A DNA stretch of 64,000 bases, from contig JAYEKM010000008.1 of NCBI GenBank assembly GCA_034661035.1, positions 11,677 to 75,676 of the forward strand, written 5' to 3'. Made by a program: the position numbers and the translations under genes. This document shows, piece after piece, positions 22,993 through 40,081 of the stretch (position 1 is the first letter of the stretch; every line of letters starts with the position of its first letter). This stretch comes from Patescibacteria group bacterium. Lineage in GTDB: Bacteria > Patescibacteriota > Minisyncoccia > Phycocordibacterales > UBA12079. The notes beneath the pieces were generated by a model, which ran no database searches, was not told the DNA's origin, and saw only the letters and a list, made by a program, of their open reading frames with translations.

Positions 22993-23159
22993 ATTTTACA
23001 GAAAAATGTTTTATGTATATGTGTTACAATCAAATGAAGACAAAAGGTTTCGTGCAGATTATACAAAAAATTTAAAGTTAAGATTTGACCGTCATAATAA
23101 AAAAATTTTATTTAACAATACAAAAACATACTATGGAAAAACATTTATTAGAAAAAGGG

Positions 23160-23184
23160 TCAAATCTTATTTAATAGGGTAAAT
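23160..23184 (+). promoter_or_regulatory. conserved 5' UTR/promoter module directly abutting the PAP2 start codon
   Basis: TCAAATCTTATTTAATAGGGTAAAT-ATG; 24/25 identical to the module at 27228 on the opposite strand. Confidence 0.5.
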
Positions 23185-23733
23185 ATGAACGAAAATATTT
23201 TTTATTTTTTCAGCAACTTAGTATTTAGAAACGAAATGGTTGATATGTTAATTGTCTTTTTAGCTGATTGGCTTATTTGGTGGATGATCTTTTTTGTGGC
23301 TGTTCTATTTTTTCTAAAAAAAATATCTTTCAAGATAATTTTGAAAATACTAACAGCGACATTAGCCGCTTGGTTAATTTCTAAATTAATTAAGCACTTT
23401 TACTTTAGTCCCCGACCTTTTGTCTTATTAACTGATATAAAAACACTTTTTACTCATGGGCTTAATGATTCTTTCCCGTCTGGTCATACAACTTTTGCAT
23501 TTGCCTTAGCAACAGCTATTTCCCTCTTTTCAAATTGGAAAACCGGTTTATTCTTTTTCGTTAGTGCAATCCTGATTGGACTATCCAGAATTACAGTAGG
23601 AATTCATTGGCCTCTTGATATTTTAGGAGGATTAGTTCTAGGAGTAATAATTTCTTCAATTTTTTATTTTTTGCAAAAAACAAAGGTGAGTCGATTTAAC
23701 GACTCACCTCAGGATAAAACTTCAAATGTTTAA
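23185..23733 (+). CDS. PAP2-family phosphatase (likely undecaprenyl-diphosphate phosphatase)
   Basis: PAP2 motifs PSGHTT and SRITVGIHWPLD. Confidence 0.8.
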   Translation: MNENIFYFFSNLVFRNEMVDMLIVFLADWLIWWMIFFVAVLFFLKKISFKIILKILTATLAAWLISKLIKHFYFSPRPFVLLTDIKTLFTHGLNDSFPSGHTTFAFALATAISLFSNWKTGLFFFVSAILIGLSRITVGIHWPLDILGGLVLGVIISSIFYFLQKTKVSRFNDSPQDKTSNV

Positions 23734-25595: not shown

Positions 25596-26222
25596 TTATT
25601 CTTTATCGAAAATTTTTTCAGGATTTTCTAACTTAATTCTTTTGTGATTCTCATAAGTTTCTTTCTTGTCCTTTTCTACTAATTTCAAAACTTTTTCAAC
25701 TAATCTTTTAGGATCAGAATCAAAAACAATATTATCATTTGGCCGATGAGCTTTTTCAATAATAAGTTGGATAATCTCATCTGTGGCCCAATCCCCTTCT
25801 AAAATACCCATTGGTTTTTCATCTTCAAAAGCAATGGTAAATTCGTGGATAGTTCCAACTCTTCCAGCAGAAATAAAAACTGCATCTACTGATTTGGTCA
25901 AAATCAAATCCCTCCCTGGATAACCAAAACCTGTATAAACAATCAAATCCATATACTCGGTCGGTAATTTGTAAGAATGTAAATGTTCATCCTCTGTGTC
26001 AGCAGGTGAGAACCCAATAGACATTCCCCCTTCATTTTTTGCCCCCTTAGCTGCCCACAAAGGCAAGCCTGTAGTAGCTCCTGTAACTAGAATACCTCCT
26101 TGTCTAATAATTTCTTTACCTAATTCTTCTGTCTTTACAACAGCATCTGGAGTTAAATGAGTTGTATCTGCTGAACCAGAGACACAAAGTTTAGGTTTCA
26201 AAAACATTCCTTTATCGTCCAT
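25596..26222 (-). CDS. LOG/TIGR00725-family Rossmann-fold protein
   Basis: VSGSADT..ILVTGATTGLP..ISAGRVGTIHEF pattern. Confidence 0.5.
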   Translation of the reverse strand: MDDKGMFLKPKLCVSGSADTTHLTPDAVVKTEELGKEIIRQGGILVTGATTGLPLWAAKGAKNEGGMSIGFSPADTEDEHLHSYKLPTEYMDLIVYTGFGYPGRDLILTKSVDAVFISAGRVGTIHEFTIAFEDEKPMGILEGDWATDEIIQLIIEKAHRPNDNIVFDSDPKRLVEKVLKLVEKDKKETYENHKRIKLENPEKIFDKE

Positions 26223-26258
26223 AATATTTTTCTTATGAGCAAAGCGAATTAGAAAAAT

Positions 26259-26279
26259 ATTACCCTGTTAAATCAAATT
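26259..26279 (-). promoter_or_regulatory. copy of the conserved TTTAACAGGGTAAT motif upstream of the LOG-like gene
   Basis: attACCCTGTTAAATcaaatt, about 35 nt upstream of the start. Confidence 0.4.
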
Positions 26280-26388
26280 TTGTAAAAATTTGATTCATTT
26301 GAGTTTTAAAAACTCAAATGATATTTAATATGGGTTATTCCAAAAAACTACTAAGCTCCTATTTATAATCTATAATTAAATTTAAGTT

Positions 26389-26431
26389 AAAAGTCTATAA
26401 AGGCCAACGTCTATAAAGTCTTTATAAAACC
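26389..26431. repeat. IVS-like repeat arm (left), overlaps the 3' end of the four-helix-bundle gene
   Basis: aaaaGTCTATAAAGgccaacGTCTATAAAGTCtttataaaacc; supplies codons IKTL and the TAG stop. Confidence 0.6.
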
Positions 26432-26755
26432 TGATAATAATTTCGATATTTCAATCGATAAACTAAAACATTTTTCAAACTGTTCTTTAGATAAATACTT
26501 TAGCTCTAAAGCTAAATAAAGCATCGATCTTACCTCTCCACAGGAACCTTTTGCTATAAATAAAAAATGCTTAAACTCTCTATCCCCCTTCCTCTCAAAT
26601 CCTTCTGCAATATTGTTCATTACTGAAACAGAAGCTCTCTGAATCTGGTCTCTAAAGCTATAGTCCTTAGAATCTGAAAAACTTTTGTAGATACTGATCG
26701 TTAGGGTTCTTGCTTTCTGCCATGATATCATATCTTCAAATTTTTCAATTTTCAT
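26411..26755 (-). CDS. four-helix-bundle protein (23S rRNA intervening-sequence protein family)
   Basis: MKIEKFEDMISWQKARTL..NNIAEGFERKGDREFKHFLFIAKGSCGEVRSMLYLALEL pattern; start trimmed to Met26 of the track ORF. Confidence 0.75.
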   Translation of the reverse strand: MKIEKFEDMISWQKARTLTISIYKSFSDSKDYSFRDQIQRASVSVMNNIAEGFERKGDREFKHFLFIAKGSCGEVRSMLYLALELKYLSKEQFEKCFSLSIEISKLLSGFIKTL

Positions 26756-26800
26756 ACTTTTTACTTTATAGACTTTATGAACTTTCGACTGTAACATCCA
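26756..26800. repeat. IVS-like repeat arm (right), inverted relative to 26389
   Basis: tactttttACTTTATAGACTTTATGAACTTTCGACtgtaac. Confidence 0.6.
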
Positions 26801-27227
26801 TTTTATCAAGTTTACCTTTTTCTGCAACAAAAGACTTATCCTTCCTCAATTTTAAAAGAATGAAATAAGCCAGCAACCAACCCAACATATCCATTAAAAT
26901 ATCCAGACTAGTGTCTAAGTTAAAGTTAGATTGATAAATTGAAGCCTTTGCTAAATATTCAAAAATTTCCCACAAAATACCTACTGTTATTACAAAAAAT
27001 AAGGATGTATAGAATATAGAAAGTTTTTCTTTAATTCTTCTAAAATATTTCGATAGAAAAAAAATATAATAAGAAAGCAAAGCCACCCAAAAACCACCAA
27101 GAAAGTGCATAATTATGTCAAACCACCAAAATTTCCAATATAGGAAAAAGTGGCTAGCAAGAATATTTAAAATAAAGATTATATAAATAAAAACAACCAG
27201 AAAAATTGAAAAAGTTTTTTTGCTCAT
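26775..27227 (-). CDS. hypothetical small membrane protein (about 150 aa, 4 TM)
   Basis: Start trimmed to MSKKTFSIFLVV; the conserved 5' module sits directly upstream. Confidence 0.5.
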   Translation of the reverse strand: MSKKTFSIFLVVFIYIIFILNILASHFFLYWKFWWFDIIMHFLGGFWVALLSYYIFFLSKYFRRIKEKLSIFYTSLFFVITVGILWEIFEYLAKASIYQSNFNLDTSLDILMDMLGWLLAYFILLKLRKDKSFVAEKGKLDKMDVTVESS

Positions 27228-27252
27228 ATTTACCCTGTTAAATAAGATTTGA
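27228..27252 (-). promoter_or_regulatory. conserved 5' UTR/promoter module abutting the start codon of the membrane gene
   Basis: Minus strand reads TCAAATCTTATTTAACAGGGTAAAT-ATG. Confidence 0.5.
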
Positions 27253-27433
27253 TTCTTTTTTTTAATAAGTACCTCTTCATAATGTGTTTTTAAATTACTG
27301 AACAAACTTTCCTTTTACCGCAACCATCAAATCTTAACTTTAAATTTTTTATATAATATAATTTATATAAAACTTTTTATCCTTAGCTGATTATAGCATA
27401 TATACATAGAACATTTTCCGCAAGATTTAAAGT

Positions 27434-27450
27434 TATTTAATAGGGTGAAT
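27434..27450 (+). promoter_or_regulatory. copy of the TTATTTAATAGGGTGAAT motif (plus orientation)
   Basis: About 205 bp from the inverted copy at 27228; second divergent pair. Confidence 0.4.
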
Positions 27451-27472
27451 TATATCACACGGTCAAATAGAA

Positions 27473-27503
27473 ATAAAAAAAAGACCTTTCCGAGGAAAGG
27501 TCC
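27473..27503 (-). terminator. hairpin with T-run on the minus strand (terminator of an unannotated minus-strand transcript?)
   Basis: aaaaaaaa-GACCTTTCC-GAG-GGAAAGGTC, with a GC-rich stretch gagtgggagtctgcggtggcgtggccg to its right. Confidence 0.4.
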
Positions 27504-27714
27504 TAAGGAGAAAAAGAGTGGGAGTCTGCGGTGGCGTGGCCGATGATGTGAAATAACGTAAACTTCTCAAAACTTTTTCGTCCTAAAAATGAACAACTTG
27601 TCTACTATTAGTATAGCAAGGAAACTTAAAAATGCAAGGAAAATTGGATTTAATCTTTAAAAAAGTGGCAAAAATATAAAAAATCAGCTAAGATTAAGAT
27701 TGTTAAATTAAATT

Positions 27715-28542
27715 ATGAACAACCTAAGAACAACAGTAATAAAACCTAAAAAGACTATCAGTTGGGATGACCTTAGAGAAATTTGGAAATATAAAGAATT
27801 ACTTTATTTTTTCACTTGGCGAGACATTAAGGTGAGATATAAGCAAACTGCCATCGGTATTCTCTGGGCCCTTTTCCAACCTTTTATGACAATGGTAGTT
27901 TTTAGTATTTTCTTTGGTGGATTAGCTAAAATGCCTTCCGATGGTATTCCTTATCCAATTTTTGTTTACACCGGACTATTGCTTTGGCAATTCTTTTCAG
28001 GAGCTTTATCAGACACGAGTAATTGTTTAATCAACAATAAAAGTGTCATCACAAAGGTTTACTTCCCACGTCTGCTACTACCGATTTCATCAACCATTAC
28101 AAAATTTGTTGATTTTGGGATAGCTTCTACAATTTTGGTAGGAATGATGATTTACTATCAATACATACCAAACTTAATAGGATTATTAATTTTACCTTTA
28201 CTTCTTCTTATTACTTTTATGGCGTCAGTGGGAGGAGGTTTATTTCTAGCCTCCATTAATGTTAAATATCGTGATGTCCGTTACGCTCTACCTTTTTTCA
28301 TATCAATGATGATGTTCGTCACTCCTGTAATTTATCCAGCTAGTATTGCCGGTAAATACTCTTGGATTTTAGCGCTAAACCCCATGACAGGTGTAATTAA
28401 AGCAGCTAGGGCAGCTATTTTAGGCAATGCCCCCATTAACTGGACCTTATTACTCATCTCTGGAGTAACTTGTCTCATAATACTAATTATTGGTTTTATT
28501 TTCTTCAAAAAAACCGAGAGATACTTCGCAGATATAGTATAA
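27715..28542 (+). CDS. ABC-2 type polysaccharide/teichoic-acid exporter permease (Wzm/TagG-like)
   Basis: 6-TM ABC-2 permease; the N-terminal WRDIKVRYKQTAIGILWALFQP motif is typical of Wzm/KpsM/TagG. Confidence 0.75.
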   Translation: MNNLRTTVIKPKKTISWDDLREIWKYKELLYFFTWRDIKVRYKQTAIGILWALFQPFMTMVVFSIFFGGLAKMPSDGIPYPIFVYTGLLLWQFFSGALSDTSNCLINNKSVITKVYFPRLLLPISSTITKFVDFGIASTILVGMMIYYQYIPNLIGLLILPLLLLITFMASVGGGLFLASINVKYRDVRYALPFFISMMMFVTPVIYPASIAGKYSWILALNPMTGVIKAARAAILGNAPINWTLLLISGVTCLIILIIGFIFFKKTERYFADIV

Positions 28543-28544
28543 AA

Positions 28545-28660
28545 GAGTAAAAAGTCTATAAAGTCCTTAAAGTAGAAAGTAAAAAAAATGGGAAATTGAC
28601 TTCGCCAATTTCCAATTTTTTTACTTTATAGACTTTCGACTTTATAAACTTTCGGCTCTT
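28545..28660. repeat. ORF-less IVS-like palindromic element with a central bidirectional terminator
   Basis: Arms aaaaGTCTATAAAGTCCTTAAAGTAGAAAGT / ACTTTATAGACTTTCGACTTTATAAACTTTCGG; centre A8-GGAAATTG-ACTTCGC-CAATTTCC-T7. Confidence 0.65.
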
Positions 28661-31600
28661 CTTTATAAGCTCTTAAATATAAAACCGGTATCATTACTAG
28701 TGTAACCACAGTCGCAAAAGACAAACCAAAGATAATTGAAAAAGCTAGAGGACCCCAAACAGAGGAAGCAAGAATTAGAGGAGTCATTCCTATAACTGTG
28801 GTTAAAGTGGTAAGGAGCACTGGCCTCAAACGAAGAACTGAAGATTCTATAACGATATCCTTAAGAGGAAGTTCTCTTTTCTCTTTTCTCATGGAGTTCA
28901 TTGTGTCAATTAAGATAATTGCATTATTGACAACAATTCCTGCCAGAGCTATCACACCGATAAAAGAAGGGAAAGAAAAAGTGCTCCCTATTATAGTTAA
29001 TCCAACCAAAACACCAATCAAAGACATCAAGACACCCGCCACTATAAAGAAAGTTTGTCTGAAAGAGTTAAATTGTAATATCAAAACAACAATAACCAAG
29101 ATTAGCCCAGCCACCAAAGCCATCAGCATTTCAGTAAAGGTCTTAGCAATATCTTCATTTTCACCTCCTGTTTTTAACAAAACACCCTCAGGAAGGAAAG
29201 TCTCGTCATCTTTTATAATGGATTGGAATTCTTTATTAATTTCAACAGCATTAGCTCCCTCTTTTAATTGAGATGAAGCGGTAGCAATCCGATCCCCTTC
29301 TTCATGGTTGATAGAAGCATTACTTTTTTGAATTGTCACATCCATCAACGAGCCTAAAAGAATTACTCCATTAGGGGTATTAATTTCCATCTGCCTAATA
29401 GAATCAACTGTAGTCCTTGAAGTTAAATTTGGATCAACATTATCTATATTAAGATTTAGTTTGACCAAAACATCAATATCTTCACCACCTGCTTTTATGG
29501 TGGTTGCGTCTACCCCATAAATAGCTGTCCTTAAAATTGAAGCAACTATTACTGGCGATAAATTACTTTCTGATAATTTAGACCTATCTATTTTCAAAAC
29601 AAATTCTGTAACATTATTTTTCATACTATTGGTTACATCGATTGTTCCAGGAATATTTTTCAAAATATCTTCGGCTTTAACAACAACTCTTTCCAAATCA
29701 TCCAAGTCAGCCCCGAAAAATTTTATTAAAACAGGAGCTCCTGAAGGAGGACCCGAACCAGGCTGAGCAACAGTCACTTTGGCTATTCTAATATCTGCTA
29801 ATTCAAACCTTAAATCTTCTATCAATTCTAGACTGTTTTTTTCTCTATCCTTCTTCAATAGAACAGTGATATTCCCTAACTTTTCGCCAGAACTACTACC
29901 AGAATTACTAAAAGCATTTGAGGAACCAACTGACGTAGCAAATGATTCAATATAAGATTGGTTATATAAAATTTCTTCCACTGCTCTGACAGCCAAATCA
30001 GTTTCTTCTAGAACCGTTCCCTGCAACATTTCTACATCAACATAAATAAACTTAGAATCTTCTGGGGGGAACAAGGAGGTTTTAAGCAAGCCAGTAATTG
30101 GTAAAGAGAAAGAAAGAATTAAAGCAATCACCATCGACCACAAAAATCTTTTTTGAAACTTCTTACTACCTAAAATATATTCTAATTTCTTTTTATACCA
30201 ACCTCTTAATAATTCATTATATTTCTTTTGTTTCTGAAATAATTTACTATTACTATTTCCGTTCCTTTTTAAGACTACTAAAGCAATTAAAGGAACAATA
30301 CCTAAAGCTACAAAAAGTGAAGCAAATAAAACAAAAATTAATGTATAGGGAATTCCCTTAACAAATTCGCCCATAATGCCAGACAAAAAGAATAAAGGAA
30401 AAAAGGCTGCCACTGTAGTCAACGTTCCAGAAGTTAAGGGTATATAAAATTCTTTAATAGTTTTAATAGCTGATTCGTTACCACTCAGTCCTTGTTTAAT
30501 TTTGACGTGCATAGCTTCAGTTACCACAATAGCGGAATCCACCAAAATTCCTACTGCCAAAATCAGAGCAAATAAAGAAATAAAATTAAGAGTGTTACCT
30601 GTAAAATACAAACCTGTAAAAGAAACCAAGAACGAAAGAGGGACTGCTAAACCAGCAATTAAAGATTCTCTCCAACCAATAGCAAAAAATAAGATTAGTG
30701 TAACTAAGAAAACAGTAGCTAATCCCGACATAGATAAATTTCTTAAGTCATCGTTTAAATACTCGGCCATATCGATTGAAATCAATACCTCAGCCCCTTC
30801 CAAAATACCACCTTCCTGCAGTCTAGCTAATTCTTTCTTAACACTTTTTACAATAGTACTGATATCACTCCCCCTCTTCTTAAAGATAGACAATGAAACA
30901 GCTTGCTGAGAAGGTTGCCCATTGACACTAACTCTAGAAAATGAAGATTTTTGACTAACTCCGTCAGAGATAAAAGCCAGATCTCTAACATAAATAATCT
31001 CCCCCCCGATACTTGAAATAGGGATATCTTTAATCTCATTTGAATCAACAAGATCCCCTTTAAATTTTAAAGGATACTTGATTCCTTGTATCTCTATGTC
31101 TCCTATTGGTAAAGAAGAATTAGCTTTAGAGATTGCATTAACAATATCTGTAATTCCTAAACCAAATTTAGAAAGAGCTGATTGGTTTACAACCACCTGA
31201 ACTTCCCTGTCTGAAATTCCACTAATACCTATTTTAGAAACACCATTAACAGACTTTAATTCATCTTTGACGTCTTCGGATAATTTAATAAATTCAGTTA
31301 CCGGTAAATCACTGGAAATAGATAGCATCAGAATAGGTTGATCGGCAAAATTTATATCTGAAATAACTGGGTCTTTAGCTTCACTAGGTAATTCTGATTT
31401 AACTTTATCAACTTCATCTTTTACTTTTTGAATAGATTCCTGGATATCAGCGTCAGCATCAAATTCAACTACTACTGAAGAAAACCCCTCTCCTGAGGTA
31501 GAGGTAATCTTATTTAATGTATCCAAATTGTTAATTAATTGATCTTCTATTTTATCGGTTATCAATCTTTCTGTGTCTAAAGCTGAGGACCCTGGTAAAA

Positions 31601-31751
31601 ATGTAGAAACAATAGCTAAAGGAATTTGTATTTCAGGAGAAGATTCTTTTGTGATATTAACTAAAGAAAAAATCCCTGCCATAATTAAGGAAGAAACTAA
31701 CAATATAGTAAAACTTTTTTTCTTTATAAAAAATATCCAGAAATTTTGCAT
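28626..31751 (-). CDS. RND efflux transporter permease (AcrB/HAE-like)
   Basis: 1041 aa, 12-TM RND architecture, AcrB-like N-terminal pattern. The last codons KVYKVESL-stop lie in the repeat arm. Confidence 0.8.
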   Translation of the reverse strand: MQNFWIFFIKKKSFTILLVSSLIMAGIFSLVNITKESSPEIQIPLAIVSTFLPGSSALDTERLITDKIEDQLINNLDTLNKITSTSGEGFSSVVVEFDADADIQESIQKVKDEVDKVKSELPSEAKDPVISDINFADQPILMLSISSDLPVTEFIKLSEDVKDELKSVNGVSKIGISGISDREVQVVVNQSALSKFGLGITDIVNAISKANSSLPIGDIEIQGIKYPLKFKGDLVDSNEIKDIPISSIGGEIIYVRDLAFISDGVSQKSSFSRVSVNGQPSQQAVSLSIFKKRGSDISTIVKSVKKELARLQEGGILEGAEVLISIDMAEYLNDDLRNLSMSGLATVFLVTLILFFAIGWRESLIAGLAVPLSFLVSFTGLYFTGNTLNFISLFALILAVGILVDSAIVVTEAMHVKIKQGLSGNESAIKTIKEFYIPLTSGTLTTVAAFFPLFFLSGIMGEFVKGIPYTLIFVLFASLFVALGIVPLIALVVLKRNGNSNSKLFQKQKKYNELLRGWYKKKLEYILGSKKFQKRFLWSMVIALILSFSLPITGLLKTSLFPPEDSKFIYVDVEMLQGTVLEETDLAVRAVEEILYNQSYIESFATSVGSSNAFSNSGSSSGEKLGNITVLLKKDREKNSLELIEDLRFELADIRIAKVTVAQPGSGPPSGAPVLIKFFGADLDDLERVVVKAEDILKNIPGTIDVTNSMKNNVTEFVLKIDRSKLSESNLSPVIVASILRTAIYGVDATTIKAGGEDIDVLVKLNLNIDNVDPNLTSRTTVDSIRQMEINTPNGVILLGSLMDVTIQKSNASINHEEGDRIATASSQLKEGANAVEINKEFQSIIKDDETFLPEGVLLKTGGENEDIAKTFTEMLMALVAGLILVIVVLILQFNSFRQTFFIVAGVLMSLIGVLVGLTIIGSTFSFPSFIGVIALAGIVVNNAIILIDTMNSMRKEKRELPLKDIVIESSVLRLRPVLLTTLTTVIGMTPLILASSVWGPLAFSIIFGLSFATVVTLVMIPVLYLRAYKEEPKVYKVESL

Positions 31752-31860
31752 AATAATTGTTTAGTCTAAAGTCCTTAATATCCATAAAGCCGAAAGTGAA
31801 AAATTTGCTTTGCAAATTTTTCTTACCTTATGGGCTTTTGACTTCATAGACTTTCGACTA
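31752..31860. repeat. second ORF-less IVS-like palindromic element between the RND and MFP genes
   Basis: Arms tAGTCTAAAGTCCTTAATATCCATAAAGCCGAAAGTG / GACTTCATAGACTTTCGACT; centre AAATTTGC-TTT-GCAAATTT. Confidence 0.6.
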
Positions 31861-33460
31861 TTTGTCCTTCTTTCAATCCTCTCGCATCTATAACAATTTC
31901 CATATCAGCTGTGACACCTTCTTTTATAATTATTTTTTCTCCTAAGATAGGACCTAAAATTACAGGATGAGAAATCAATTTATTTCCTTCACCCACTGTA
32001 AAAACGGTTGTGTCAGCAGATCCAATCTTTAGAGCTGAAATCGGAACAGAAAGTTCTGTTAATTCTTCTTCAACTTCTTGAAAAATTCTTTCAACCAACA
32101 AAGAAACTGACTGTCCATTAGTCAAAACCATATCTGAATCTTTTAAGGTAACCTCCACTTTTATCTTTTTTGTTTTGTTGTCTATGGCAGGAGCGATATT
32201 TTTAACTTCTCCTTGCCATTTAGAACCAACTAAAACCTTAGAACCAACTTCAACATCATCTCTATCTTCTTCTGTAATATAGGTAACTACCTCTAAAGAT
32301 TTATTATTGGCAATACTTACTACAGGAGTAAAAGCTGAAACAAAATCACCCTTTTCTAAATTAAGGATATTAATAGTTCCACTAATAGAGGCTCTAATAA
32401 TTGTTTTCTCTAAATTAGCGTAAGCTGATTGCAGACCTGCTTCAGCTTGTTTTAATTGAGCTTCTGCTGAGATAACGTCTTCTGATCTCCCCCCTGTTTG
32501 AGCCTGTTCATAATTCAACTCAGCAATTTCAAAGTTTGAGTAAGCCCCATTCAAACTATTCTTAGCTGTAGACAAAGCTGTTGCAGATGTGTTGATCACA
32601 GTTCTGGTTGTACTTATATTAGTTTTCCATGTAGTGATAGTTGTTTCTGATAAGTTTGAAGTCGGAGTTAGGATATTTACAGCCAAAGCTAATTTATCAA
32701 GAAAAACTCTAATGGAATTAATATTTGACTTTCTTTTATCCAATTCCCCTATTAAATCATCTTCTACATCAAATGTAGTTAGTGTATCTGACCACTCCTC
32801 TAACATTTCTTCTAAAAGCAATCTTCTCCACTCAAGATCAATTTCTAATTGAGAATCAACCACAGGGAAAATTACTTGTGGATCATCTCCTCGGGCGTCT
32901 CTAAACATAGCGTCCATTTTATTTCTAATAGAGTCATCAGCTTTAGCAAAAGAATCGTTCAAAGTGTTAACAACTGATATTTTGGTTTCAGTTAAAGTAT
33001 TTTGAACATTATCTAGAGTGGTTTTAAGAATAGAAGTCTGTTCATCTCTACCTCCTTTTTTTATCTTATCTAAACCTGCTTGAGCAACTTCAACACTGGC
33101 CTCTGCTTGAGTCACAGCTGATTTTTGTGTCCAATTGTCTAATTCACCAATAATTTGATTAGACCAAACAGTATCGCCTAATTTTTTGTAAACCCCAATT
33201 ACTTCTCCTGATATTTGAGAATAAATATTAGCAGAAGATTGTGACTGAACTTTTCCTAATAAAGGCAATGGATCTTTATTCAAAGAAAGATTCCTAACTG
33301 ACATAGTAGCAACTTGTCTAACATCAGAAGAATCAATATCTTGATCCCCATTTTCCTGAACAACCAATCTCTGATAAAAGATAATTGTTAAAATAGCTAA
33401 AATAGTGAAAACTATAATAACTTTATTACGACCTAACCCTTTATTTCTTAAATCTAACAT
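31844..33460 (-). CDS. RND efflux periplasmic adaptor (membrane fusion protein, HlyD/AcrA family)
   Basis: N-terminal TM, long coiled-coil, C-terminal beta-barrel-like region. Start trimmed to ATG 33460; the longer ORF would translate the GC palindrome. Confidence 0.65.
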   Translation of the reverse strand: MLDLRNKGLGRNKVIIVFTILAILTIIFYQRLVVQENGDQDIDSSDVRQVATMSVRNLSLNKDPLPLLGKVQSQSSANIYSQISGEVIGVYKKLGDTVWSNQIIGELDNWTQKSAVTQAEASVEVAQAGLDKIKKGGRDEQTSILKTTLDNVQNTLTETKISVVNTLNDSFAKADDSIRNKMDAMFRDARGDDPQVIFPVVDSQLEIDLEWRRLLLEEMLEEWSDTLTTFDVEDDLIGELDKRKSNINSIRVFLDKLALAVNILTPTSNLSETTITTWKTNISTTRTVINTSATALSTAKNSLNGAYSNFEIAELNYEQAQTGGRSEDVISAEAQLKQAEAGLQSAYANLEKTIIRASISGTINILNLEKGDFVSAFTPVVSIANNKSLEVVTYITEEDRDDVEVGSKVLVGSKWQGEVKNIAPAIDNKTKKIKVEVTLKDSDMVLTNGQSVSLLVERIFQEVEEELTELSVPISALKIGSADTTVFTVGEGNKLISHPVILGPILGEKIIIKEGVTADMEIVIDARGLKEGQIVESL

Positions 33461-33475
33461 ATTTTTCTTGTTCGC

Positions 33476-33495
33476 CCTGCCTGCCGGCAGGCAGG
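33476..33495. promoter_or_regulatory. 20-bp perfect GC-rich palindrome 16 nt upstream of the MFP start (candidate operator or 5' hairpin)
   Basis: CCTGCCTGCCGGCAGGCAGG with outer TTCGCCC/GGGCGAA; about 80% GC in a roughly 30% GC genome. Confidence 0.45.
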
Positions 33496-33608
33496 CTTGG
33501 GCGAAATTATATCTACCTTGCAAAAATTACTGGGGTATTATACCAAAAATAAGTGAAAAAGATAGATTTTCTCCTAAAAAATGGTAAAATAACACTTACA
33601 TAAACAAT

Positions 33609-34898
33609 ATGTCTGATCCAAGAGAACCGATGATTTCGGTTAAAAACATCTCTAAAAAGTATAAAATAACCCATCAACAGGGTGGTTATATTGCTATGCG
33701 AGATGTCATGGCAAATATAGCTAAAAAACCCTTTTCTTTCTTAAAAAGAAAGGTTAATAAGATTACAGGAAGAACAACCAGAGAAGACTTTTGGGCCTTA
33801 GAAGACATTAATTTTGATATTTTTAAAGGGGAAGCTGTAGGGATTATTGGTGCAAACGGAGCAGGCAAATCTACCCTTTTAAAAATCTTAACGGGTATTA
33901 CCCCACCCACCACAGGAGAAATAAAGATGTACGGAAAAGTTGCCTCTCTCCTAGAAGTTGGAACGGGATTCCATGGAGAGCTTACAGGAAGAGAAAATAT
34001 TTTTTTAAACGGGGCCATCCTTGGAATGACCAAGGAAGAGATAGCTGAAAAATTTGATGCTATTGTAAGATTTTCTGGTGTTAAAAAATTCATTGATACA
34101 CCTGTTAAAAGATATTCGTCAGGAATGTTAGTCCGTCTAGGTTTCTCGGTCGCAGCTCATATGGAGCCAGATATTCTTTTAGTTGATGAAGTCCTCGCTG
34201 TCGGTGATGCGGAGTTTCAAAAGAAATGCCTTGGTAAGATGGACGAGGTCACCAAAGAAGGAGGTCGTACTATTCTCTTTGTCAGCCATAATATGGCAGC
34301 TATCCAAAATCTCTGCAAAAGGTGTATTCTAATTGAAGAAGGTAAAATTAAAATGATTGGTAAGACAAAAGATGTTATTGATAGATATTTAAAATCTGAA
34401 ATACAAGACAATCCTCAAATTAAGTTTAAACCTGATTTAAATAAAAAAGCTCAAATCTTAGGAATAAAAATGAGGAACGAGAAGAACGAAATAATCAATC
34501 AAATTAATTATCAGGAACATTTTGAAATTGAATTACTAACGGATATCAGAGTTAAAAATAAAACTTATTATATTATAATCATAATTTACAACTCTGTTGG
34601 AAATATAATATTAACAACCACTGATAGAGATTTAGAACAATCTTTTATCAGTCAAATAGACAAAGTTAATAAAGAAAATAAACATTTAATCAGATTTCCA
34701 AATAAATTACTAAAACCAGGACAATATTATATCTCAATAAATTTAACTAGTGATAATCAAGGCGCTATAGACAAGCATAGTTCAGTGCTAAGTTTTAATA
34801 TTATAGACACCATATCTAAAAGATCTAAAGATAATGGTTACCGAGATACTGCTATTGTTGCTCCAGAAATAAACTGGATTTCCAAGGTAGAAAAATAA
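33609..34898 (+). CDS. polysaccharide/teichoic-acid export ABC ATPase (Wzt/TagH/KpsT-like) with a C-terminal substrate-binding-type domain
   Basis: Walker A GANGAGKST, signature YSSGMLVRLGF, Walker B ILLVDE; about 180-aa C-terminal extension. Confidence 0.8.
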   Translation: MSDPREPMISVKNISKKYKITHQQGGYIAMRDVMANIAKKPFSFLKRKVNKITGRTTREDFWALEDINFDIFKGEAVGIIGANGAGKSTLLKILTGITPPTTGEIKMYGKVASLLEVGTGFHGELTGRENIFLNGAILGMTKEEIAEKFDAIVRFSGVKKFIDTPVKRYSSGMLVRLGFSVAAHMEPDILLVDEVLAVGDAEFQKKCLGKMDEVTKEGGRTILFVSHNMAAIQNLCKRCILIEEGKIKMIGKTKDVIDRYLKSEIQDNPQIKFKPDLNKKAQILGIKMRNEKNEIINQINYQEHFEIELLTDIRVKNKTYYIIIIIYNSVGNIILTTTDRDLEQSFISQIDKVNKENKHLIRFPNKLLKPGQYYISINLTSDNQGAIDKHSSVLSFNIIDTISKRSKDNGYRDTAIVAPEINWISKVEK

Positions 34899-34902
34899 AA
34901 TT

Positions 34903-35640
34903 ATGAAAAAATTAGCAATTATCCCCGCTAGAGGCGGGTCAAAAAGATTGAAGAACAAAAACAGACTCCTATTAAGTGGGAAACCTTTAGTTGTTTATAC
35001 AATAGAGTCAGCAATTAAAAGTAAACTATTTGATAAAATTATTCTTTCAACTGATGATGAAAAAATCGCTAAAATAGGTAAAGATTTAGGGATATCAATA
35101 TATTATCGACCCAAAAAATATGCATCTGACACCGCCACAGTAATTCAAGCTCTCGTTGAATTAATGGAAACTTTTGAAAAAAATGGTGAAAAATATGATG
35201 TTGTTTGTCAAATGCTCCCAACTTGCCCTTTTAGAGATTTTGAAGACATTAAAAAAGGAATACAATTATTGGATAAAAAAACAGATTCTGTCATAAGTAT
35301 TTCCACCTATAATTTCCCTTTACCAAAATCACTAAGCAAAAAAGGAGACTTTATAAAACCATATTGGCCTAATTCTCCATTTTTAACAGGAAAAACAAGA
35401 ACACAGGATCAACAAATCTTTTATCATGATAATGGAGCCTTCTATATATCTTGGTGGGAATCAATAAAAAAATATAAAACTTTCTATAAAGGAGAAATAA
35501 AAGGGTATGAGATAAATCATCTAAAAACTATTGATATAGATAATAAACTTGATTTTGAAATGGCAGAAATAATATTAACACATGTTAAAGACAATAAAAA
35601 TCAATCGGAAATTAAAAAACTTTTGTCTCATTTAATTTAA
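34903..35640 (+). CDS. CMP-nonulosonic acid synthetase family cytidylyltransferase (NeuA/PseF/LegF-like)
   Basis: N-terminal AIIPARGGSKRLKNKN. Confidence 0.75.
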   Translation: MKKLAIIPARGGSKRLKNKNRLLLSGKPLVVYTIESAIKSKLFDKIILSTDDEKIAKIGKDLGISIYYRPKKYASDTATVIQALVELMETFEKNGEKYDVVCQMLPTCPFRDFEDIKKGIQLLDKKTDSVISISTYNFPLPKSLSKKGDFIKPYWPNSPFLTGKTRTQDQQIFYHDNGAFYISWWESIKKYKTFYKGEIKGYEINHLKTIDIDNKLDFEMAEIILTHVKDNKNQSEIKKLLSHLI

Positions 35641-35647
35641 TAAATTT

Positions 35648-37582
35648 ATGACCCAGTCAAAAACAAAAATCGAAAAATTATTTGATACCGATAATAAATC
35701 AACTTACATTATAAGCGAAATTGGGATAAACCATAACGGATCTCTCAAAACTGCTCTAGAACTTATTAAAGCTTCAAAAGAAGCAGGGGTAGATGCTGTT
35801 AAATTTCAGAAAAGGAATCTTAAAAAAATATATTCTGATGGTATTTTAAACAATCCAAATAATGCTGAGTGGAATTTTGATTATTTAATACCTCTTCTAA
35901 AAGAAATAGAATTATCAAAACAAGATTACAAAGTAATAAAAAAAACTTGCGATGAATTAAGCCTTGATTTAATAATAACACCTTTTGATGAAGATTCAGC
36001 TGAATTTGTTCATAAATTAGGTGTAGTTGCATACAAAATATCCTCTTCGGACATGACTAATTTTAACTTGATAAAAAAATGTGCTTCTTACAATTTACCG
36101 CTAATCATTTCAACTGGAATGTGGGACAAAAAAGATATCCAGAAATGTGTCAATTTTTATAAAAATAATAATATTAACTATGCTTTGTTATTAACAAATT
36201 CAACCTACCCAGCTCCATACGAATCAACACATTTAAAATTTATAGAGGAATTAAAAAAGATGAGTAATATAGTAGGTTACTCTGGACATGAGAGAGGTAT
36301 TTTTATTCCTGTCGCTGCTGTAGCCTTAGGGGCAAAAATAATAGAAAAACATATTACTTTCAGTAGAAATGATTATATAAAGGTAGGAAATAAACTCAGA
36401 CAACAACAAAAAGGTCCTGACCATAAAGCATCTCTCCTCCCTGAGGAATTTACTGAAATGGTAAATAATATAAGAAACTTAGAAAAATCACTCCAAAGAG
36501 ATAAGGACATAAATCAAGCTGAAAAATTAAATAGGGAGGCTTTCGCTAAATCAGCAACAGCAAAACATTTTCTGAAAAAAGGACATATTCTAACCGAAAG
36601 CGATATAATTTTTAGAGCCCCTGGTAAAGGTATATTTCCTCACGAAATAAATGAATACATTAAAAAGAAATTAACAAAAGATGTATTAAAAGATAAATAT
36701 ATCTCTAAAAATGATTTTAAAAATAACCTGTCAACAAAAGGATGGGAGAAATTTAATTTTTCGCAAAAATGGGGATTGAAATGTCGATTTCATGACTATG
36801 AAAAGTTAAAACAAATAAAACCCCCTGTTTTAGAATTTCATTTTTCTGACACTGATTTAGATGTTAGCTTTGATGAGGGGAATAATGAATCTGAGTTGAT
36901 AGTGCATGCTCCTGAAATAGTAGACAGAAAACTTATAAATTTTTGTTCTAATGATCCAGAAATTGTTAACATGTCAATAAAAACAATTCAAAAAACAATA
37001 GATAAAGCTACAAAACTTGGGAAAAAGTGGACCAAGGCAAAGACAAAGTTAGTAATTCATCTCGGAGGAATGCAGTTGAATAAATCAACTAATAAAAATA
37101 TATATACTGAATGCTTAAATAATGCTATAAATAATTTCAGTAAACTAAAATATTCACCAGATGATATAGAGATACTACCTGAAAATTTACCATCGAGACC
37201 ATGGTACCTTAACGGAGAATGGTATCAATATGGATTCACTCGAGCAGAAGATATGCTAAAATTTTGCAAACACTTTAATTTAGGAATGACCTTTGATATA
37301 TGCCATGCGGCCTTATATTGTAACAACGAGAAAGAGAGTTTGGTAGATTACGCAAAAAAAATAAGGCTGATAACTAAACATATACATATATCAGACGCAA
37401 AAGGAACTAGCGGTGAAGGAATCCAAATAAATAAAGGAGAGATAAATTTTAAAGAAGTTCTTGATGTCTTCAAAAATAAAAATTTTTCTTGGGTAACAGA
37501 AATATGGAGCGGTCATTTACACGAAGGGATTGAAACTTATAAAGCACTACTAAAATTAGAAAAATTCAATGAAATTTTATAG
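35648..37582 (+). CDS. NeuB-like sialic/nonulosonic acid synthase fused to a xylose-isomerase-like TIM-barrel (sugar-phosphate isomerase/epimerase) domain
   Basis: N-terminal IISEIGINHNGSLKTALELIKASKEAGVDAVKFQK (NeuB/PseI/LegI). The C-terminal roughly 300 aa has ..FDICHAALY..HIHISD.. of the AP-endonuclease-2/xylose isomerase-like fold. 644 aa against about 340 for NeuB. Confidence 0.7.
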   Translation: MTQSKTKIEKLFDTDNKSTYIISEIGINHNGSLKTALELIKASKEAGVDAVKFQKRNLKKIYSDGILNNPNNAEWNFDYLIPLLKEIELSKQDYKVIKKTCDELSLDLIITPFDEDSAEFVHKLGVVAYKISSSDMTNFNLIKKCASYNLPLIISTGMWDKKDIQKCVNFYKNNNINYALLLTNSTYPAPYESTHLKFIEELKKMSNIVGYSGHERGIFIPVAAVALGAKIIEKHITFSRNDYIKVGNKLRQQQKGPDHKASLLPEEFTEMVNNIRNLEKSLQRDKDINQAEKLNREAFAKSATAKHFLKKGHILTESDIIFRAPGKGIFPHEINEYIKKKLTKDVLKDKYISKNDFKNNLSTKGWEKFNFSQKWGLKCRFHDYEKLKQIKPPVLEFHFSDTDLDVSFDEGNNESELIVHAPEIVDRKLINFCSNDPEIVNMSIKTIQKTIDKATKLGKKWTKAKTKLVIHLGGMQLNKSTNKNIYTECLNNAINNFSKLKYSPDDIEILPENLPSRPWYLNGEWYQYGFTRAEDMLKFCKHFNLGMTFDICHAALYCNNEKESLVDYAKKIRLITKHIHISDAKGTSGEGIQINKGEINFKEVLDVFKNKNFSWVTEIWSGHLHEGIETYKALLKLEKFNEIL

Positions 37583-37609
37583 TTATATAAAGCAATAAAT
37601 TAAATAAAT

Positions 37610-38572
37610 ATGAACTTAAAAAAAATAAAAAGTGATATAAAAGGGCCTGTCTTTCCAATTATTACTCCATTTACAAAAAAACATGGGGTAGACTATAAGA
37701 AGGTAAGAGAATACATAGATTTTTTATATCAAGGCGGTGCTAGAATTTTTCATGTCATGGTTCATTCCAGCAGAATTGGACTTCTGTCTGAAAAGGAGAT
37801 TATCAAGTTAAATAAAACTGTTACAAATCATACAAAATCAAAATATAAAGATTGTATTGTAATTGCAAGTGGACCAATTATAGGGTCTACTCGTCTTAAT
37901 ATTAAGATAGCAGAGGAAGCTGAAAAAGCAGGGGCAGATATAATAGGAATAATTTTTTCCGAAAGATATTACTTTAAAGATCAAATCGTAAAATATTACA
38001 AAGAAATAGCTACCAGAGTAAAGATAGGGATTCTTATTCATGAAGAACAATTAAATTCAATTCACGGAACTAAAAAAGCTCAATTTCCTCTTGATGTCCT
38101 TGATAAAATTGCTGGTATAAAAAACGTAGTTGCAATTAAAGAAGATTCAAAAAATCATGAATTTAGCTTAAAAACTATTAAATTGCTAAAAGAAAGACTC
38201 GCTATCATTGTTTCAGGAGCTGCAAAAAAACAATTCTTGGCAAGTGCTCCATATGGCTGTCACGCTTATCTAGTTGGGGTTGGTAATTTTGCCCCGTTAG
38301 TAGCCACACAATTTTACAAATATTATTTAGAAGGTAATTTAGAAATGTGTAATGAAATAATAAATGAAATAGAAACACCGTTTCTTCAAATTGCAAAAGA
38401 ATTAGGTTGGCATATCGGGTTAAAATCAGCCATGGAAATAACCAGGGTTATGAACAGAGATGAGAGACCACCATTAGAAAAATTATCTTTAACTCAACAT
38501 AAAAAAATAGAAAGTGTTTTGAAACAGATACAAAATAAATCTATCTGGAAAAAAGTGAATAAACAAAAATGA
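37610..38572 (+). CDS. DapA/NanA-family class I aldolase
   Basis: Dihydrodipicolinate synthase family fold with a candidate Schiff-base Lys in VVAIKEDS. Confidence 0.6.
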   Translation: MNLKKIKSDIKGPVFPIITPFTKKHGVDYKKVREYIDFLYQGGARIFHVMVHSSRIGLLSEKEIIKLNKTVTNHTKSKYKDCIVIASGPIIGSTRLNIKIAEEAEKAGADIIGIIFSERYYFKDQIVKYYKEIATRVKIGILIHEEQLNSIHGTKKAQFPLDVLDKIAGIKNVVAIKEDSKNHEFSLKTIKLLKERLAIIVSGAAKKQFLASAPYGCHAYLVGVGNFAPLVATQFYKYYLEGNLEMCNEIINEIETPFLQIAKELGWHIGLKSAMEITRVMNRDERPPLEKLSLTQHKKIESVLKQIQNKSIWKKVNKQK

Positions 38573-40080
38573 AATTAAAACAAGCCACAGAGATAATAAT
38601 TGATATTGAAAATTTAGTCCCTGTAGACCAAATAGAATTTAAGGATATCAAAATATGGCCATTGATTAGATCTGAAATATGGAAACAGCTAACCAACCCT
38701 GTAAAAGAAAGAAGTTCCTTAGAAAGTTCAGCGTCAACTAACAAAAATTATTTCGAAAAAATTATTTCGAAAATATTAAGAGTATTCACTTACACAAAAT
38801 ATTCTCTTTTCAAAAAAAAACAAAAACAAAAACAAGTTATCTTTCTTCCTTCCCCTAACAACAGATGGGAAAAAGTTAACGGGCAATATCTTAAACCTTT
38901 TTCTAATAGTTTACAGGACATTTTGAGAGAAATGAAAATTAAATCTATCATACTTAATTATTCGTCAACAAATCCTAAACCTCTCTACGGAAATTTTTAT
39001 CATATACGAAAAGAAATTGAACATGCTCATTCAACACAAAGAATATTACTGCTTCTGGAAAAAATCTTTAATTTAAACAAAAAACCAAGTAAAGTTTACC
39101 ACTGGGACACATTGATTAAATTTATTAGTTTTAAATATCCTATTTTATCATTAGATAAACAGTCTATAATTGATCAAACAAATAACATAATTTCTTATGA
39201 AAAAATATTCAAAAAAATATTCAAAAAGATCAAACCAAAATTATGCTTTTTAATATGCTATTATTGTCCAATAAACATGGGTTATATAAAAGCGTGTAGA
39301 TCATTAGGGATAAAAAGTGTTGAAATCCAACATGGACAACAAGGTGATTTTCATGGAATGTACACCCATTGGACCAAATTACCTCAAAACGGTTATGAAC
39401 TTCTCCCTTCACATTGGTGGAGTTGGGGAAATAAATCTGCGGAACGAATTAATAATTGGTCTAAAACAGTACACCCCGAACATCAGGCCATTGTAGGAGG
39501 AAATCCATGGATAGCTAAAAATATCAATCAAGATTATAAAATAGATGACACTTATATTGATAAATTAGAAAAGATATTGACATTAAAAAATAAAATTAAT
39601 GTTTTGGTTGCATTACAGCCAATTGAAATACCGATAAGTAATACTCTTTTTGAAGCAATTAAGAATTCCCCTTCAAAAATTAACTGGCTTATCAGACTAC
39701 ATCCAGCAATGAGTAAACAAAAAAATGAAATTGAACAATTCCTTAAAAAAACTAACAACAAAAATATTGATATTGATTATAATTATAAAATACCATTATT
39801 TAATATTCTAAAAAGAGTTGATTTTCTTATCACACCATGGTCATCAATAGCATATGAAGCACTTTTATTTAAAGTTCACCCAATCATTATTCACCCAAAC
39901 GGAAAAGATACTTTTACTGAATATATAAACGAAGGATTGTTTACTTACGCCGATTCTTCACAGAAAATAATAAATGTAATAGAAACAAATAAAAATAAAT
40001 TTATATTTAATGAAAAACAATATTATATAGAGATAGATATATTTAAAATAAAAAATTTATTAAAAAAAATAATAAAATAA
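38569..40080 (+). CDS. hypothetical protein, possibly capsule-polysaccharide biosynthesis/glycosyltransferase-like
   Basis: 503 aa; weak resemblance to capsule polysaccharide biosynthesis families; contains an A9(CAAAAA)n tract. Confidence 0.4.
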   Translation: MKLKQATEIIIDIENLVPVDQIEFKDIKIWPLIRSEIWKQLTNPVKERSSLESSASTNKNYFEKIISKILRVFTYTKYSLFKKKQKQKQVIFLPSPNNRWEKVNGQYLKPFSNSLQDILREMKIKSIILNYSSTNPKPLYGNFYHIRKEIEHAHSTQRILLLLEKIFNLNKKPSKVYHWDTLIKFISFKYPILSLDKQSIIDQTNNIISYEKIFKKIFKKIKPKLCFLICYYCPINMGYIKACRSLGIKSVEIQHGQQGDFHGMYTHWTKLPQNGYELLPSHWWSWGNKSAERINNWSKTVHPEHQAIVGGNPWIAKNINQDYKIDDTYIDKLEKILTLKNKINVLVALQPIEIPISNTLFEAIKNSPSKINWLIRLHPAMSKQKNEIEQFLKKTNNKNIDIDYNYKIPLFNILKRVDFLITPWSSIAYEALLFKVHPIIIHPNGKDTFTEYINEGLFTYADSSQKIINVIETNKNKFIFNEKQYYIEIDIFKIKNLLKKIIK

Positions 40081-40081
40081 A

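Follow-up and report, generated by a model that had tools for sequence, protein, structure and literature searches.

The export system treated here is closest to the ATP-binding cassette (ABC) glycan exporters Wzm/Wzt, TagG/TagH and KpsM/KpsT, with which it shares an ABC-2 type permease and a Wzt_C-bearing ATPase encoded in a glycan biosynthesis cluster. It was found in a 64,000-nt stretch (the window) from a Patescibacteria group bacterium (assembly GCA_034661035.1, contig JAYEKM010000008.1, positions 11,677 to 75,676 of the forward strand). Unlike in the typical Wzm/Wzt arrangement, where adjacency is usual although not strictly defining, the permease gene wzm and the ATPase gene wzt lie 5 kb apart and appear from the sequence to form separate transcription units. 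Between them stand two opposite-strand genes for a resistance-nodulation-division (RND) permease and its membrane fusion protein (MFP) adaptor, two hairpin elements that resemble ribosomal intervening sequences (IVS) and are named E1 and E2, and a perfect 20-bp GC-rich palindrome, named P.

Small structured elements of several kinds have been described elsewhere. The Rickettsia palindromic elements and the GC clusters of yeast mitochondria are selfish palindromes tolerated in-frame in conserved protein genes and in RNA genes, and the GC clusters stand as GC-rich islands in otherwise AT-rich genomes and insert into each other. The IVS of Coxiella 23S rRNA is 428–444 nt long, has a 28-bp terminal stem and an S23p open reading frame (ORF), and is excised by RNase III (PMC4990558). 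TIGR arrays are built of alternating 8–12-nt edge and loop repeats with 9-nt spacers in a unit of ~36 nt, and adjoin a Nop-domain Tas gene (PMC12045711). Repetitive extragenic palindromes (REP) and REPINs are presented in one study as GC-rich palindromes of 20–40 bp in many dispersed copies (PMC3733652).

Weighing the comparisons below, we consider it reasonably probable that a single combined explanation covers the locus, in which a native RND/MFP block was moved locally, wzm and wzt became separate units, E1 and E2 derive from IVS-like cassettes, and P is a selfish repeat. What is noteworthy is the presence of two structured selfish-DNA families, one of hairpin cassettes with IVS anatomy in mRNA spacers and, above all, one of an exact 20-bp palindrome spread over many CPR-rich metagenomes and over viral contigs, with copies in-frame even in essential genes such as those for an aminoacyl-tRNA synthetase, a ligase and repair proteins.

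The wzm–wzt split and the origin of the RND/MFP pair

Gene calls were checked by Pfam and NCBIfam profile searches, with 30 ORFs scanned across 13–49 kb of the window. The four gene identities given in an initial annotation of this DNA were confirmed, as was its observation that wzm and wzt are split by about 5 kb (5,066 nt) carrying the opposite-strand pair. The permease gene wzm (27715–28542, + strand; PF01061, 9e-16, profile positions 3–210 of 211) encodes a polysaccharide-export protein that is 77–91% identical to many Patescibacteria orthologs and 100% identical to one labelled 'Patescibacteria group bacterium', in keeping with a Parcubacteria-type genome, and wzt (33609–34898, + strand) encodes an ABC ATPase with a C-terminal Wzt_C carbohydrate-binding domain (PF00005, 5.5e-21; PF14524, 5e-11). 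The AcrB/HAE1-like RND permease gene (28626–31751, − strand) matches PF00873 (ACR_tran) at 1.1e-175, residues 7–1026 aligning to positions 4–1018 of the 1021-position profile, and scores under NCBIfam equivalog cut-offs. Directly upstream of it on the same strand lies the gene of the MFP, a periplasmic adaptor (31844–33460; TIGR01730, 1.4e-38, 132.7 bits with a cut-off of 94.9; PF13437 (HlyD_3)), and orthologous adaptors carry precomputed YknX_C and BSH_RND matches. The mechanical ORF of the MFP reaches a TTG at 33523; the start supported by homologs is the ATG at 33460, and this start and its upstream region align with those of four relatives (L083, L003, L004 and L088; stretches used for comparison are given as L-numbers).

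With a full-length 12-TM permease of the ACR_tran family and a TIGR01730 adaptor encoded in the same operon, the pair recalls the AcrAB-type RND pumps and the YknX-like adaptors of monoderms. Unlike the AcrAB-type systems, the pair has a 538-aa adaptor and is accompanied by neither an outer-membrane factor gene nor a local repressor gene among the 30 ORFs scanned. Patescibacteria cells are not known to possess an outer membrane, and the pump probably exports amphiphiles in general from a cell that lacks this membrane, with no relation to glycan export.

Gene order was compared across 80 genomic loci with close Wzm relatives (63–91% identity), in which neighbouring genes were located by tblastn and 77 of which also carry wzt; the relatives are Parcubacteria/Paceibacteria metagenome-assembled genomes. 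Since the wzm–wzt spacer is 60 nt or shorter in 59 of these 77 loci, adjacency of the two genes is the rule. Only the nearest relatives, L003, L004, L083 and L088 (RND 69–94% identical), have the order wzm–RND–MFP–wzt, the Wzm of L003 and L004 being 90–91% identical to that of the window, and L083 and L088 having been located via the RND protein (94 and 69% identical, respectively). To the left of wzm, the window carries relA, a gene of the SLOG family, a '23S rRNA intervening-sequence protein' gene and a DUF2238 gene, and it is among such neighbours that the pair is found in other relatives. It lies between relA and SLOG in L005, L007 and L084/L085, the layout of L005 and L007 being relA, RND-MFP, SLOG to DUF2238, then wzm-wzt, and it lies directly after SLOG in L086 (relA, SLOG, RND-MFP). 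In these sisters it stands 1–2 kb upstream of wzm or adjoins SLOG, in every case beside relA. The order relA-(SLOG)-DUF2238-wzm-wzt, free of the pair, is seen in L008 and L030. This distribution supports the view that adjacency of wzm and wzt is ancestral and that the split is a derived state confined to a small subclade.

The GC content of the RND and MFP genes (0.336 and 0.334, respectively) lies within the ~25–40% range of this low-GC window, and both their GC and their codon usage match those of the housekeeping genes for LeuRS, ValRS and RelA. Because composition is native and an orthologous pair stands at nearby positions in sister genomes, the comparison indicates that the module is native DNA shifted locally, a local block shuffle and not an imported island. 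The initial annotation had read the layout as an efflux module inserted into a pre-existing polysaccharide export operon; the insertion, and with it the derived nature of the split, stands, while the foreign origin that this implied is rejected on composition. The wzm/wzt split is an ordinary lineage-specific gene-order change.

E1, E2 and the IVS-like cassettes

The two ORF-less AT-rich palindromic elements first noted beside the pair are real, as their folding is far more stable than that of shuffled sequence. E1 (28538–28665), between the convergent wzm and RND genes, has 57-nt arms (28538–28594 and 28609–28665) that are 74% complementary and an RNA fold of −42/−48 kcal/mol (z −7.4/−8.4 against shuffles). 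E2 (~31762–31860), in the gap that separates the RND start (31751) from the MFP stop (31844), folds at −29/−36 kcal/mol (z −4.9/−6.6), the more stable value (−36; z −6.6) being that of the transcribed strand. The two elements had been taken to bracket the pair; E2 is internal to it, so that they flank RND alone.

The arms of E1 and E2 match those of a full-length IVS-like cassette of ~410 nt in the same window (26385–26795, − strand), and they carry the same motif with no ORF. In the full-length copy, inverted arms of 9-nt periodic units (AAAGTCTAT)n at 26385–26430 and 26755–26795 surround the intervening-sequence protein gene mentioned above, which encodes a four-helix bundle (26411–26752, − strand; PF05635, 4e-35; TIGR02436, 2e-32). 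Terminal inverted repeats around a PF05635 ORF were found in this and eight further cassettes, and homologous armed cassettes are present in L007, L023, L032, L035, L082 and L083. Derivatives take several forms: a cassette with an internal deletion in L003 (5541–5665) retains the two ORF ends, a MazF-like gene splits the arms in L004, and other cargo follows the same right arm in L008. These copies show that ORF-less elements derive from cassettes and that the arms hold varied cargo, and the arm matches indicate that E1 and E2 are ORF-less descendants of '23S-IVS-like' hairpin cassettes. Other cassette subfamilies have different periodic arm motifs (TTGAAAGA, AAGAATTA), with the two arms of each pair still inverted-complementary; thus it is the hairpin that is kept, not the sequence.

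Turnover of the elements is evident among relatives. At the position of E2, L083 has a partly decayed counterpart, and L007, a genome of the other layout, has a half-copy. At the position of E1, L083 has a plain terminator and L088 has a spacer of 1 nt, so within the subclade the same interruption is found in two relatives that lack this repeat. As E2 is internal to the pair and has a half-copy in L007, and as E1 is missing in L083 and L088, the elements are not scars of the efflux move; the suggestion that they mark insertion boundaries fails, since they come and go among relatives of the same layout.

As to function, the core of E1 (28591–28613; GGAAATTGACTTCGCCAATTTCC between an A-run and a T-run) is terminator-like on both strands, with stems of 10 and 8 pairs followed by T-runs, and would serve as a bidirectional intrinsic terminator between the convergent genes. 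The long double-stranded stems of E1 and E2 probably act as terminators or as RNase III-type processing sites. Better pairing on the transcribed strand was considered as a sign of RNA-level structure and was rejected, as no consistent asymmetry emerged. A search of Rfam returned no family for E1, E2, P or the wzm leader, the sole match being that of a plant miRNA to the E1 hairpin at chance level (E=0.68).

The window cassette and its homologs share with the 23S rRNA IVS of Coxiella and Leptospira a module length of ~410–430 nt, terminal inverted repeats and a long stem around a PF05635 ORF. They differ in location, in arms and in derivatives: all IVS-like copies lie between protein-coding genes, in the spacers of operons, with none in a 23S rRNA helix and no rRNA in the window; their arms consist of short periodic units (the 9-nt AAAGTCTAT or other subfamily motifs); and they have given rise to ORF-less forms (E1, E2) and to forms with other cargo (MazF-like). 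An interpretation of the periodic arms as TIGR arrays was discarded, as their total period is 9 nt, the architecture is wrong and no Tas gene occurs among the ORFs scanned. A 36-nt segment that is 86% identical to the IVS-like arm motif was observed at 56522–56557, where it is read in-frame as KVHKVHKVES within the linker between the domains of a GT1-family enzyme (glycosyltransferase gene 55890–57086, − strand); an alignment with BshA reveals no extra residues there, and the segment is probably not an insertion.

A dispersed 20-bp palindrome in the MFP leader

P (CCTGCCTGCCGGCAGGCAGG) occupies 33476–33495 exactly as first annotated and ends 15 nt upstream of the MFP ATG. It is unique in the window even when three mismatches are allowed, with zero matches expected in shuffles. 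Nested in an outer TTCGCCC/GGGCGAA stem, it forms a composite GC hairpin of −27 kcal/mol in the MFP 5′ leader (33471–33505). The same composite is present in the sister genome L083 with one substitution in the 20-mer, which shows vertical inheritance and drift, and we propose that the ancestor shared by these two genomes gained P within a smaller GC hairpin. The outer stem belongs to a second small GC palindrome family, TCCGCC..GGCGGA or TTCGCC..GGCGAA, seen in the window at 33471–33476 and 33499–33505 and standing alone in L008 (8420–8440).

Outside this locus, exact copies of the 20-mer are numerous. At least 120 matches were found in a metagenome collection (L089–L168 among the copies), while by our own arithmetic fewer than 0.01 matches per 10^12 bases are expected by chance at such composition. 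Among 85 metagenome copies that were read, 70 are on contigs of at most 50% GC, each in a different context, many of them from groundwater or sediment. In viral contigs the exact 20-mer occurs in 35 stretches (L209–L245); each of two control palindromes matched to it in base composition gave 0. Its 18-nt core adds only two viral stretches to the 35, which argues that the conserved unit is exactly 20 bp; the 18-nt core as the true, always-in-frame unit was rejected on the same count. The RND-MFP pair of L005 has arrays on either side in which five diverged or nested copies are mixed with CGTC-tagged palindromes (CGTCATTGCGAG), and members of the family are also present in L018.

Copies of P stand, among other contexts, in AT-rich short-period tracts that resemble the cassette arms, at the tips of longer GC hairpins, in fragments of tRNA genes, and in GC-rich 7-nt periodic tracts on phage-like contigs of 60–68% GC; P is often embedded in short-period repeat tracts of the IVS-like cassette-arm kind. 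For example, intergenic hairpins of the 7-nt units GGTGAGA/CCTCTAA with P at their centre were observed on a 67% GC phage-like contig (L209:10560–10690 and 11200–11330) and in L238, an architecture that is the same as that of the AT-rich Patescibacteria cassette arms, in GC-rich sequence. On an IMG/VR contig of 64% GC (L233:2284), P stands at position 45 of a tRNA-Met gene as a long variable arm, and ARAGORN calls this tRNA with or without the 20 nt. Other copies are in tRNA gene fragments (D-loop or T-loop) beside intact tRNAs (L161, L167, L123 and L240). Residence in functional tRNA genes was rejected as a general feature: deletion of P restores an intact tRNA in one of 169 copies tested, namely in the variable loop of the L233 tRNA-Met. 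A preference for hairpin loops, suggested by the window copy, the tRNA loops and the arrangement CTCTGCGGAG-P-CTCGCAGAG, was likewise rejected, as flank complementarity in the 70 low-GC copies is 2.51 pairs per 10 versus 2.60 at random.

Whatever the frame, P is free of stop codons, and open frames of at least 100 codons enclose 31 of the 70 low-GC copies, the frame of in-gene copies staying open for hundreds of codons on both sides. Clear cases are the genes for PheS, PurH, LigA (in one exact copy and two decayed ones), UvrC, a DinB-like polymerase and an RNase J-like protein (L097, L125, L143 and L117 among the loci), and the in-frame palindrome reads xLPAGRQx, CLPAGR or PACRQA. In a set of 121 PheS orthologs (75–99% identity; Patescibacteria, Levybacteria-like; consensus RKLMGE-x-IKLKF), the six-residue insert is found in only two; a third has a half-decayed copy at the same site (ATCTGCCTGCCGAAAGAAAAG), and three have there a different 12-nt GC palindrome (TCCGCCAGCCGGCGGA) of the type of the outer stem in the window. 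The net gain in PheS is 18 nt, so that 2 nt of P were lost or replaced, and alignments to solved PheS and PurH structures place a gap at the insert. These findings fit a palindrome that is occasionally gained, is tolerated in loops, leaders and spacers, and then decays. The second GC palindrome family in the three PheS orthologs is also in-frame, reading SASRR (L247:1501–2550).

By its many dispersed copies, often intergenic and clustered, nested or in tandem (L005, L148 and L215), and by its co-occurrence with the CGTC-tagged palindromes of L005, P resembles REP and REPIN sequences. Unlike these, it bears no GTAG or CGTC tag itself, has no RAYT-like gene near the multi-copy loci examined, appears to be of low density per genome, keeps its exact sequence across distant lineages and GC contents, and is not purely extragenic, given its in-frame copies in genes. 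In-frame residence in conserved genes, presence in a tRNA variable loop and nesting are shared with the Rickettsia palindromic elements and the yeast mitochondrial GC clusters. P differs from these in its size (20 bp versus ~30–150 bp), in being a perfect palindrome without a stop in any frame, and in occurring in Patescibacteria and on phage-like contigs, and no homology is implied.

P is a member of a dispersed repeat family that, judged from its copies, behaves like a tiny selfish palindrome. We tentatively suggest, at somewhat less than even confidence, that CCTGCCTGCCGGCAGGCAGG is the core of an undescribed 20-bp mobile palindromic element that moves within and between Patescibacteria lineages and phage-like genomes, is copied by some enzyme, and can survive within essential genes without breaking the frame, as well as in tRNA loops, 5′ leaders and other GC palindromes; an HUH/Y1-type single-stranded DNA transposase or a repair-linked templated-insertion activity would be examples of candidates. 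The family is apparently undescribed: none of the papers searched contains CCTGCCTGCCGGCAGGCAGG, its core or the peptides LPAGRQ or CLPAGR, and none was found that describes such elements in Patescibacteria. If truly mobile, P would rank with the smallest mobile or selfish DNA units known, could give access to the chemistry of DNA repair or transposition in an uncultivated phylum, and would be a useful marker for recent gene flow.

Proposed course of events

Two candidate promoters were read from the sequence between the MFP and wzt genes. The first, for MFP-RND, is an extended −10 element (TGGTATAAT; 33537–33545, − strand), with a second TATAAT at 33506–33511. The motif TGnTATAAT is kept at the same place in L083, L003, L088 and L005 (TGTTATAAT, TGCTATAAT or TGGTATAAT), and L084 has TGGTATATT. 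The second, a candidate new wzt promoter, is an extended −10 element on the + strand (TGGTAAAAT; 33582–33590), 19 nt upstream of the wzt ATG, and the GATTTTCTCC..AAAATGGTAAAAT module also precedes the first gene after MFP in L003.

In the combined explanation, a native MFP-RND operon, normally beside relA/SLOG, was moved as a block into the 10–30-nt wzm–wzt spacer in the ancestor of the subclade, as the comparison shows; the route would have been either recombination between dispersed intergenic repeat or promoter modules or duplication and later loss. The former wzm-wzt operon would now consist of separate units: wzm, monocistronic and ending at E1; MFP-RND, transcribed from the extended −10 at 33537–33545; and wzt with the downstream glycan genes, transcribed from the new portable promoter at 33582–33590. 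E2 may part the MFP and RND portions of the mRNA by processing. The IVS-like cassettes colonise intergenic spacers in this lineage, especially that between wzm and wzt, with fast turnover, and the P composite would form a stable stem-loop in the 5′ leader whose influence on mRNA stability or translation is modest at most. As all four genes are intact, exporter and pump presumably both still work, and they are presumably not functionally coupled.

Several observations weigh against parts of this explanation. On the gene-order side, the RND of L003, which shares the split layout, is more diverged (70%) than those of L005 and L007 (75–76%); the order of the three layouts was judged from protein identities and not on a rooted species tree; no recombination junctions or duplications marking the move were identified; and gene exchange or two independent placements of the pair may have produced the same picture. 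On the transcription side, the promoters, terminators and processing sites are consensus-level readings, the promoter scan overall found no more sites than shuffles, and the arm pairing of the cassettes has no strand asymmetry (mean −0.6 kcal/mol, mixed signs). For P, density near wzm is low in relatives, with six P-like copies in ~1.3 Mb besides that of the window, and no target-site duplication, target preference or mobilising enzyme was found. No transposase or nuclease lies beside the multi-copy P loci examined, L148 having only FtsK, RecA and EF-P, and the ORFs of the multi-copy loci L229 and L209 have no Pfam match. Finally, a hairpin ends 12–15 nt upstream of the MFP start in all split-layout genomes, with differing sequences, and a selected function of this leader hairpin in the 5′-untranslated region (5′-UTR) may underlie it.

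This last point leads to the strongest of the alternatives, that the hairpin before the MFP start is a selected cis-regulatory RNA (a 5′-end stabiliser or translational modulator) for which P was merely recruited. A stable hairpin does precede the MFP AUG in every genome of the split layout, being the P composite in the window and L083 and the unrelated GGCTAAAACATC..GATGTTCGCC at the same position in L003, L004 and L088. In L005, L007 and L084, which also lack P at this position, at most weak AT hairpins occur there, and the replacement hairpins look like repeat units themselves, being part of a 51-nt tandem unit in L004 or related to the TCCGCC..GGCGGA palindromes of L008 and PheS. We therefore regard selection for such an RNA as unlikely, though worth more weight than the other rivals, and a translational or 5′-UTR hairpin role for P, which the initial annotation had offered as one of two readings, as possible. 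In the MFP leader of L004 (16510–16640), 2.5 tandem copies of the 51-nt unit with its hairpin GGGCGAACATCGAAGATGTTTTAGCCC were observed, with a single copy in L003 and L088.

A second alternative, that RND/MFP serves the glycan export machinery as adaptor or conduit for Wzm/Wzt and that its position is selected, is improbable. The pair is within a few kb of the glycan cluster in all seven of the close relatives with enough flank, and the adaptor is unusually long, with an extended coiled-coil region; MFP-like adaptors work with ABC exporters in DevBCA and MacAB. However, in L084/L085 the pair remains beside relA/SLOG with a Wzx-type flippase gene in place of wzm/wzt, which argues against a functional tie between pump and ABC exporter. 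Moreover, ~70 other Wzm/Wzt loci have no RND/MFP within 10 kb, homologs of the pair are widespread across Patescibacteria, and the pair is on the opposite strand with a candidate promoter of its own.

That RND/MFP is horizontally acquired cargo of a mobile element ended by the two IVS-like palindromes is more doubtful still. Two related palindromes do lie near the module, and the family to which they belong colonises the wzm–wzt spacer in other genomes; but the position of E2 inside the pair, the native GC and codon usage, the orthologous pair at neighbouring positions in sisters and the E1-free layout of L083 and L088 are at odds with it, and no transposase or integrase gene lies within the wzm–wzt interval.

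Slightly less credible again is a technical origin of the P family, as an adapter, linker or assembly palindrome, with 33476–33495 as a mis-join. The exact 20-mer is odd across such different GC contexts, and Logan contigs of SRR26901924 break at P with an overlap of k−1 (30 nt), L001 ending at 33495 and L002 starting at 33466. Such a break fits a graph branch at a repeat or palindrome, and it leaves the join standing, as the MFP-to-wzt adjacency is backed independently by L003 and L088. Frame preservation of the in-gene copies, decay (the single substitution in L083, and the diverged, nested or half-decayed copies of L005 and L246) and orthologous inheritance speak strongly against an artefact, and the PheS insert was recovered from NCBI, ENA and Logan sources alike. 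The 20-mer CCTGCCTGCCGGCAGGCAGG is not known to match any sequencing adapter. Repeats of this type break short-read assemblies, as at 33466–33495.

Least credible is the operator of a TetR/MarR-type repressor acting on divergent MFP-RND and wzt promoters, the other reading first proposed for P, for although a perfect dyad in a divergent intergenic region beside an efflux operon is in the classic place of an operator, the 30 ORFs scanned include no TetR, MarR or other helix-turn-helix regulator, P is in the leader downstream of the conserved extended −10 and not over the promoter, the orthologous leaders of L003, L004, L088, L005, L007 and L084 lack it, and the identical 20-mer stands in hundreds of unrelated contexts that include coding regions and a tRNA. 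Annotators should note that a palindrome beside an efflux gene is, in these genomes, usually a repeat and not an operator.

The spacer hot spot and portable modules

The wzm–wzt spacer is interrupted in 18 of the 77 genomes, by a recurring set of small cassette genes. These include four-helix-bundle IVS-protein genes (L023, L032 and L063), GxxExxY genes (L006 and L030; TIGR04256), MazF/PemK-like toxins, NYN-like proteins, AAA ATPases, and a GT39-like membrane protein with a GT2. Among the split-layout relatives, L004 has its MazF-like gene between wzm and RND, and the interval between MFP and wzt holds methyltransferase, MazF-like and GxxExxY genes in L003 and a PemK gene in L088. Local rearrangement and the insertion of small selfish cassettes are concentrated at the boundary from relA to the glycan island, the edge of a hypervariable cell-surface region, and recognising this hot spot helps to read surface-glycan diversity in host-attached organisms.

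The surrounding surface-glycan cluster comprises an initiating sugar transferase, a PAP2 phosphatase, PseF/NeuB-type nonulosonic-acid genes, an aminotransferase, and many glycosyltransferases and methyltransferases. In it, wzt is the first gene of a low-GC glycan-biosynthesis block, with PseF, NeuB and others downstream. The genes from 34900 to 47000 (nonulosonic-acid synthesis, glycosyltransferases, FdtA, DegT and methyltransferases) have a GC of 0.24–0.30 versus 0.32–0.37 for the backbone, as expected for an exchangeable, variable glycan island.

Promoter and leader homologies recur at several places in this region and are plausible substrates for the block move. A 55-nt portable leader module (ATTTAACAGGGTAATATTTTTCTAATTCGCTTTGCTCATAAGAAAAATATTATG) precedes SLOG in the window (26222–26275) and precedes RND instead in L003 (10228–10285), L004 (14655–14710) and L088 (9895–9950); the Logan contig L001 begins inside it, at window position 26255. 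A promoter/leader region of ~290 nt, including the first codons, is present as an inverted duplicate (22920–23230, + strand; 27185–27500, − strand), upstream of the PAP2 and DUF2238 genes, respectively. The two copies, both of which hold the motif TTTAAYAGGGTRAAT close to the start codons, flank the 4-kb block of relA, SLOG, IVS-protein and DUF2238 genes and could serve as a substrate for inversion.

A further block between DUF2238 and wzm (27478–27620) is conserved and is also found in L004 and L083. In it, a GC hairpin (GACCTTTCCGAGGAAAGGTC) precedes a strong Shine-Dalgarno-like AAGGAG and a short, poorly conserved ORF of 12–36 codons, with a promoter and a terminator bounding ~120 nt on the opposite strand; the block had no match in Rfam and is possibly a leader peptide or a small RNA. 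In addition, a dispersed repeat (AAGAAGTCCGACCTCAG) and its inverted partner (GAGGTCGGACTTC) form tandem and inverted arrays between MFP and RND in L086 (1490–1730) and beside P copies in L148 (1370–1500).

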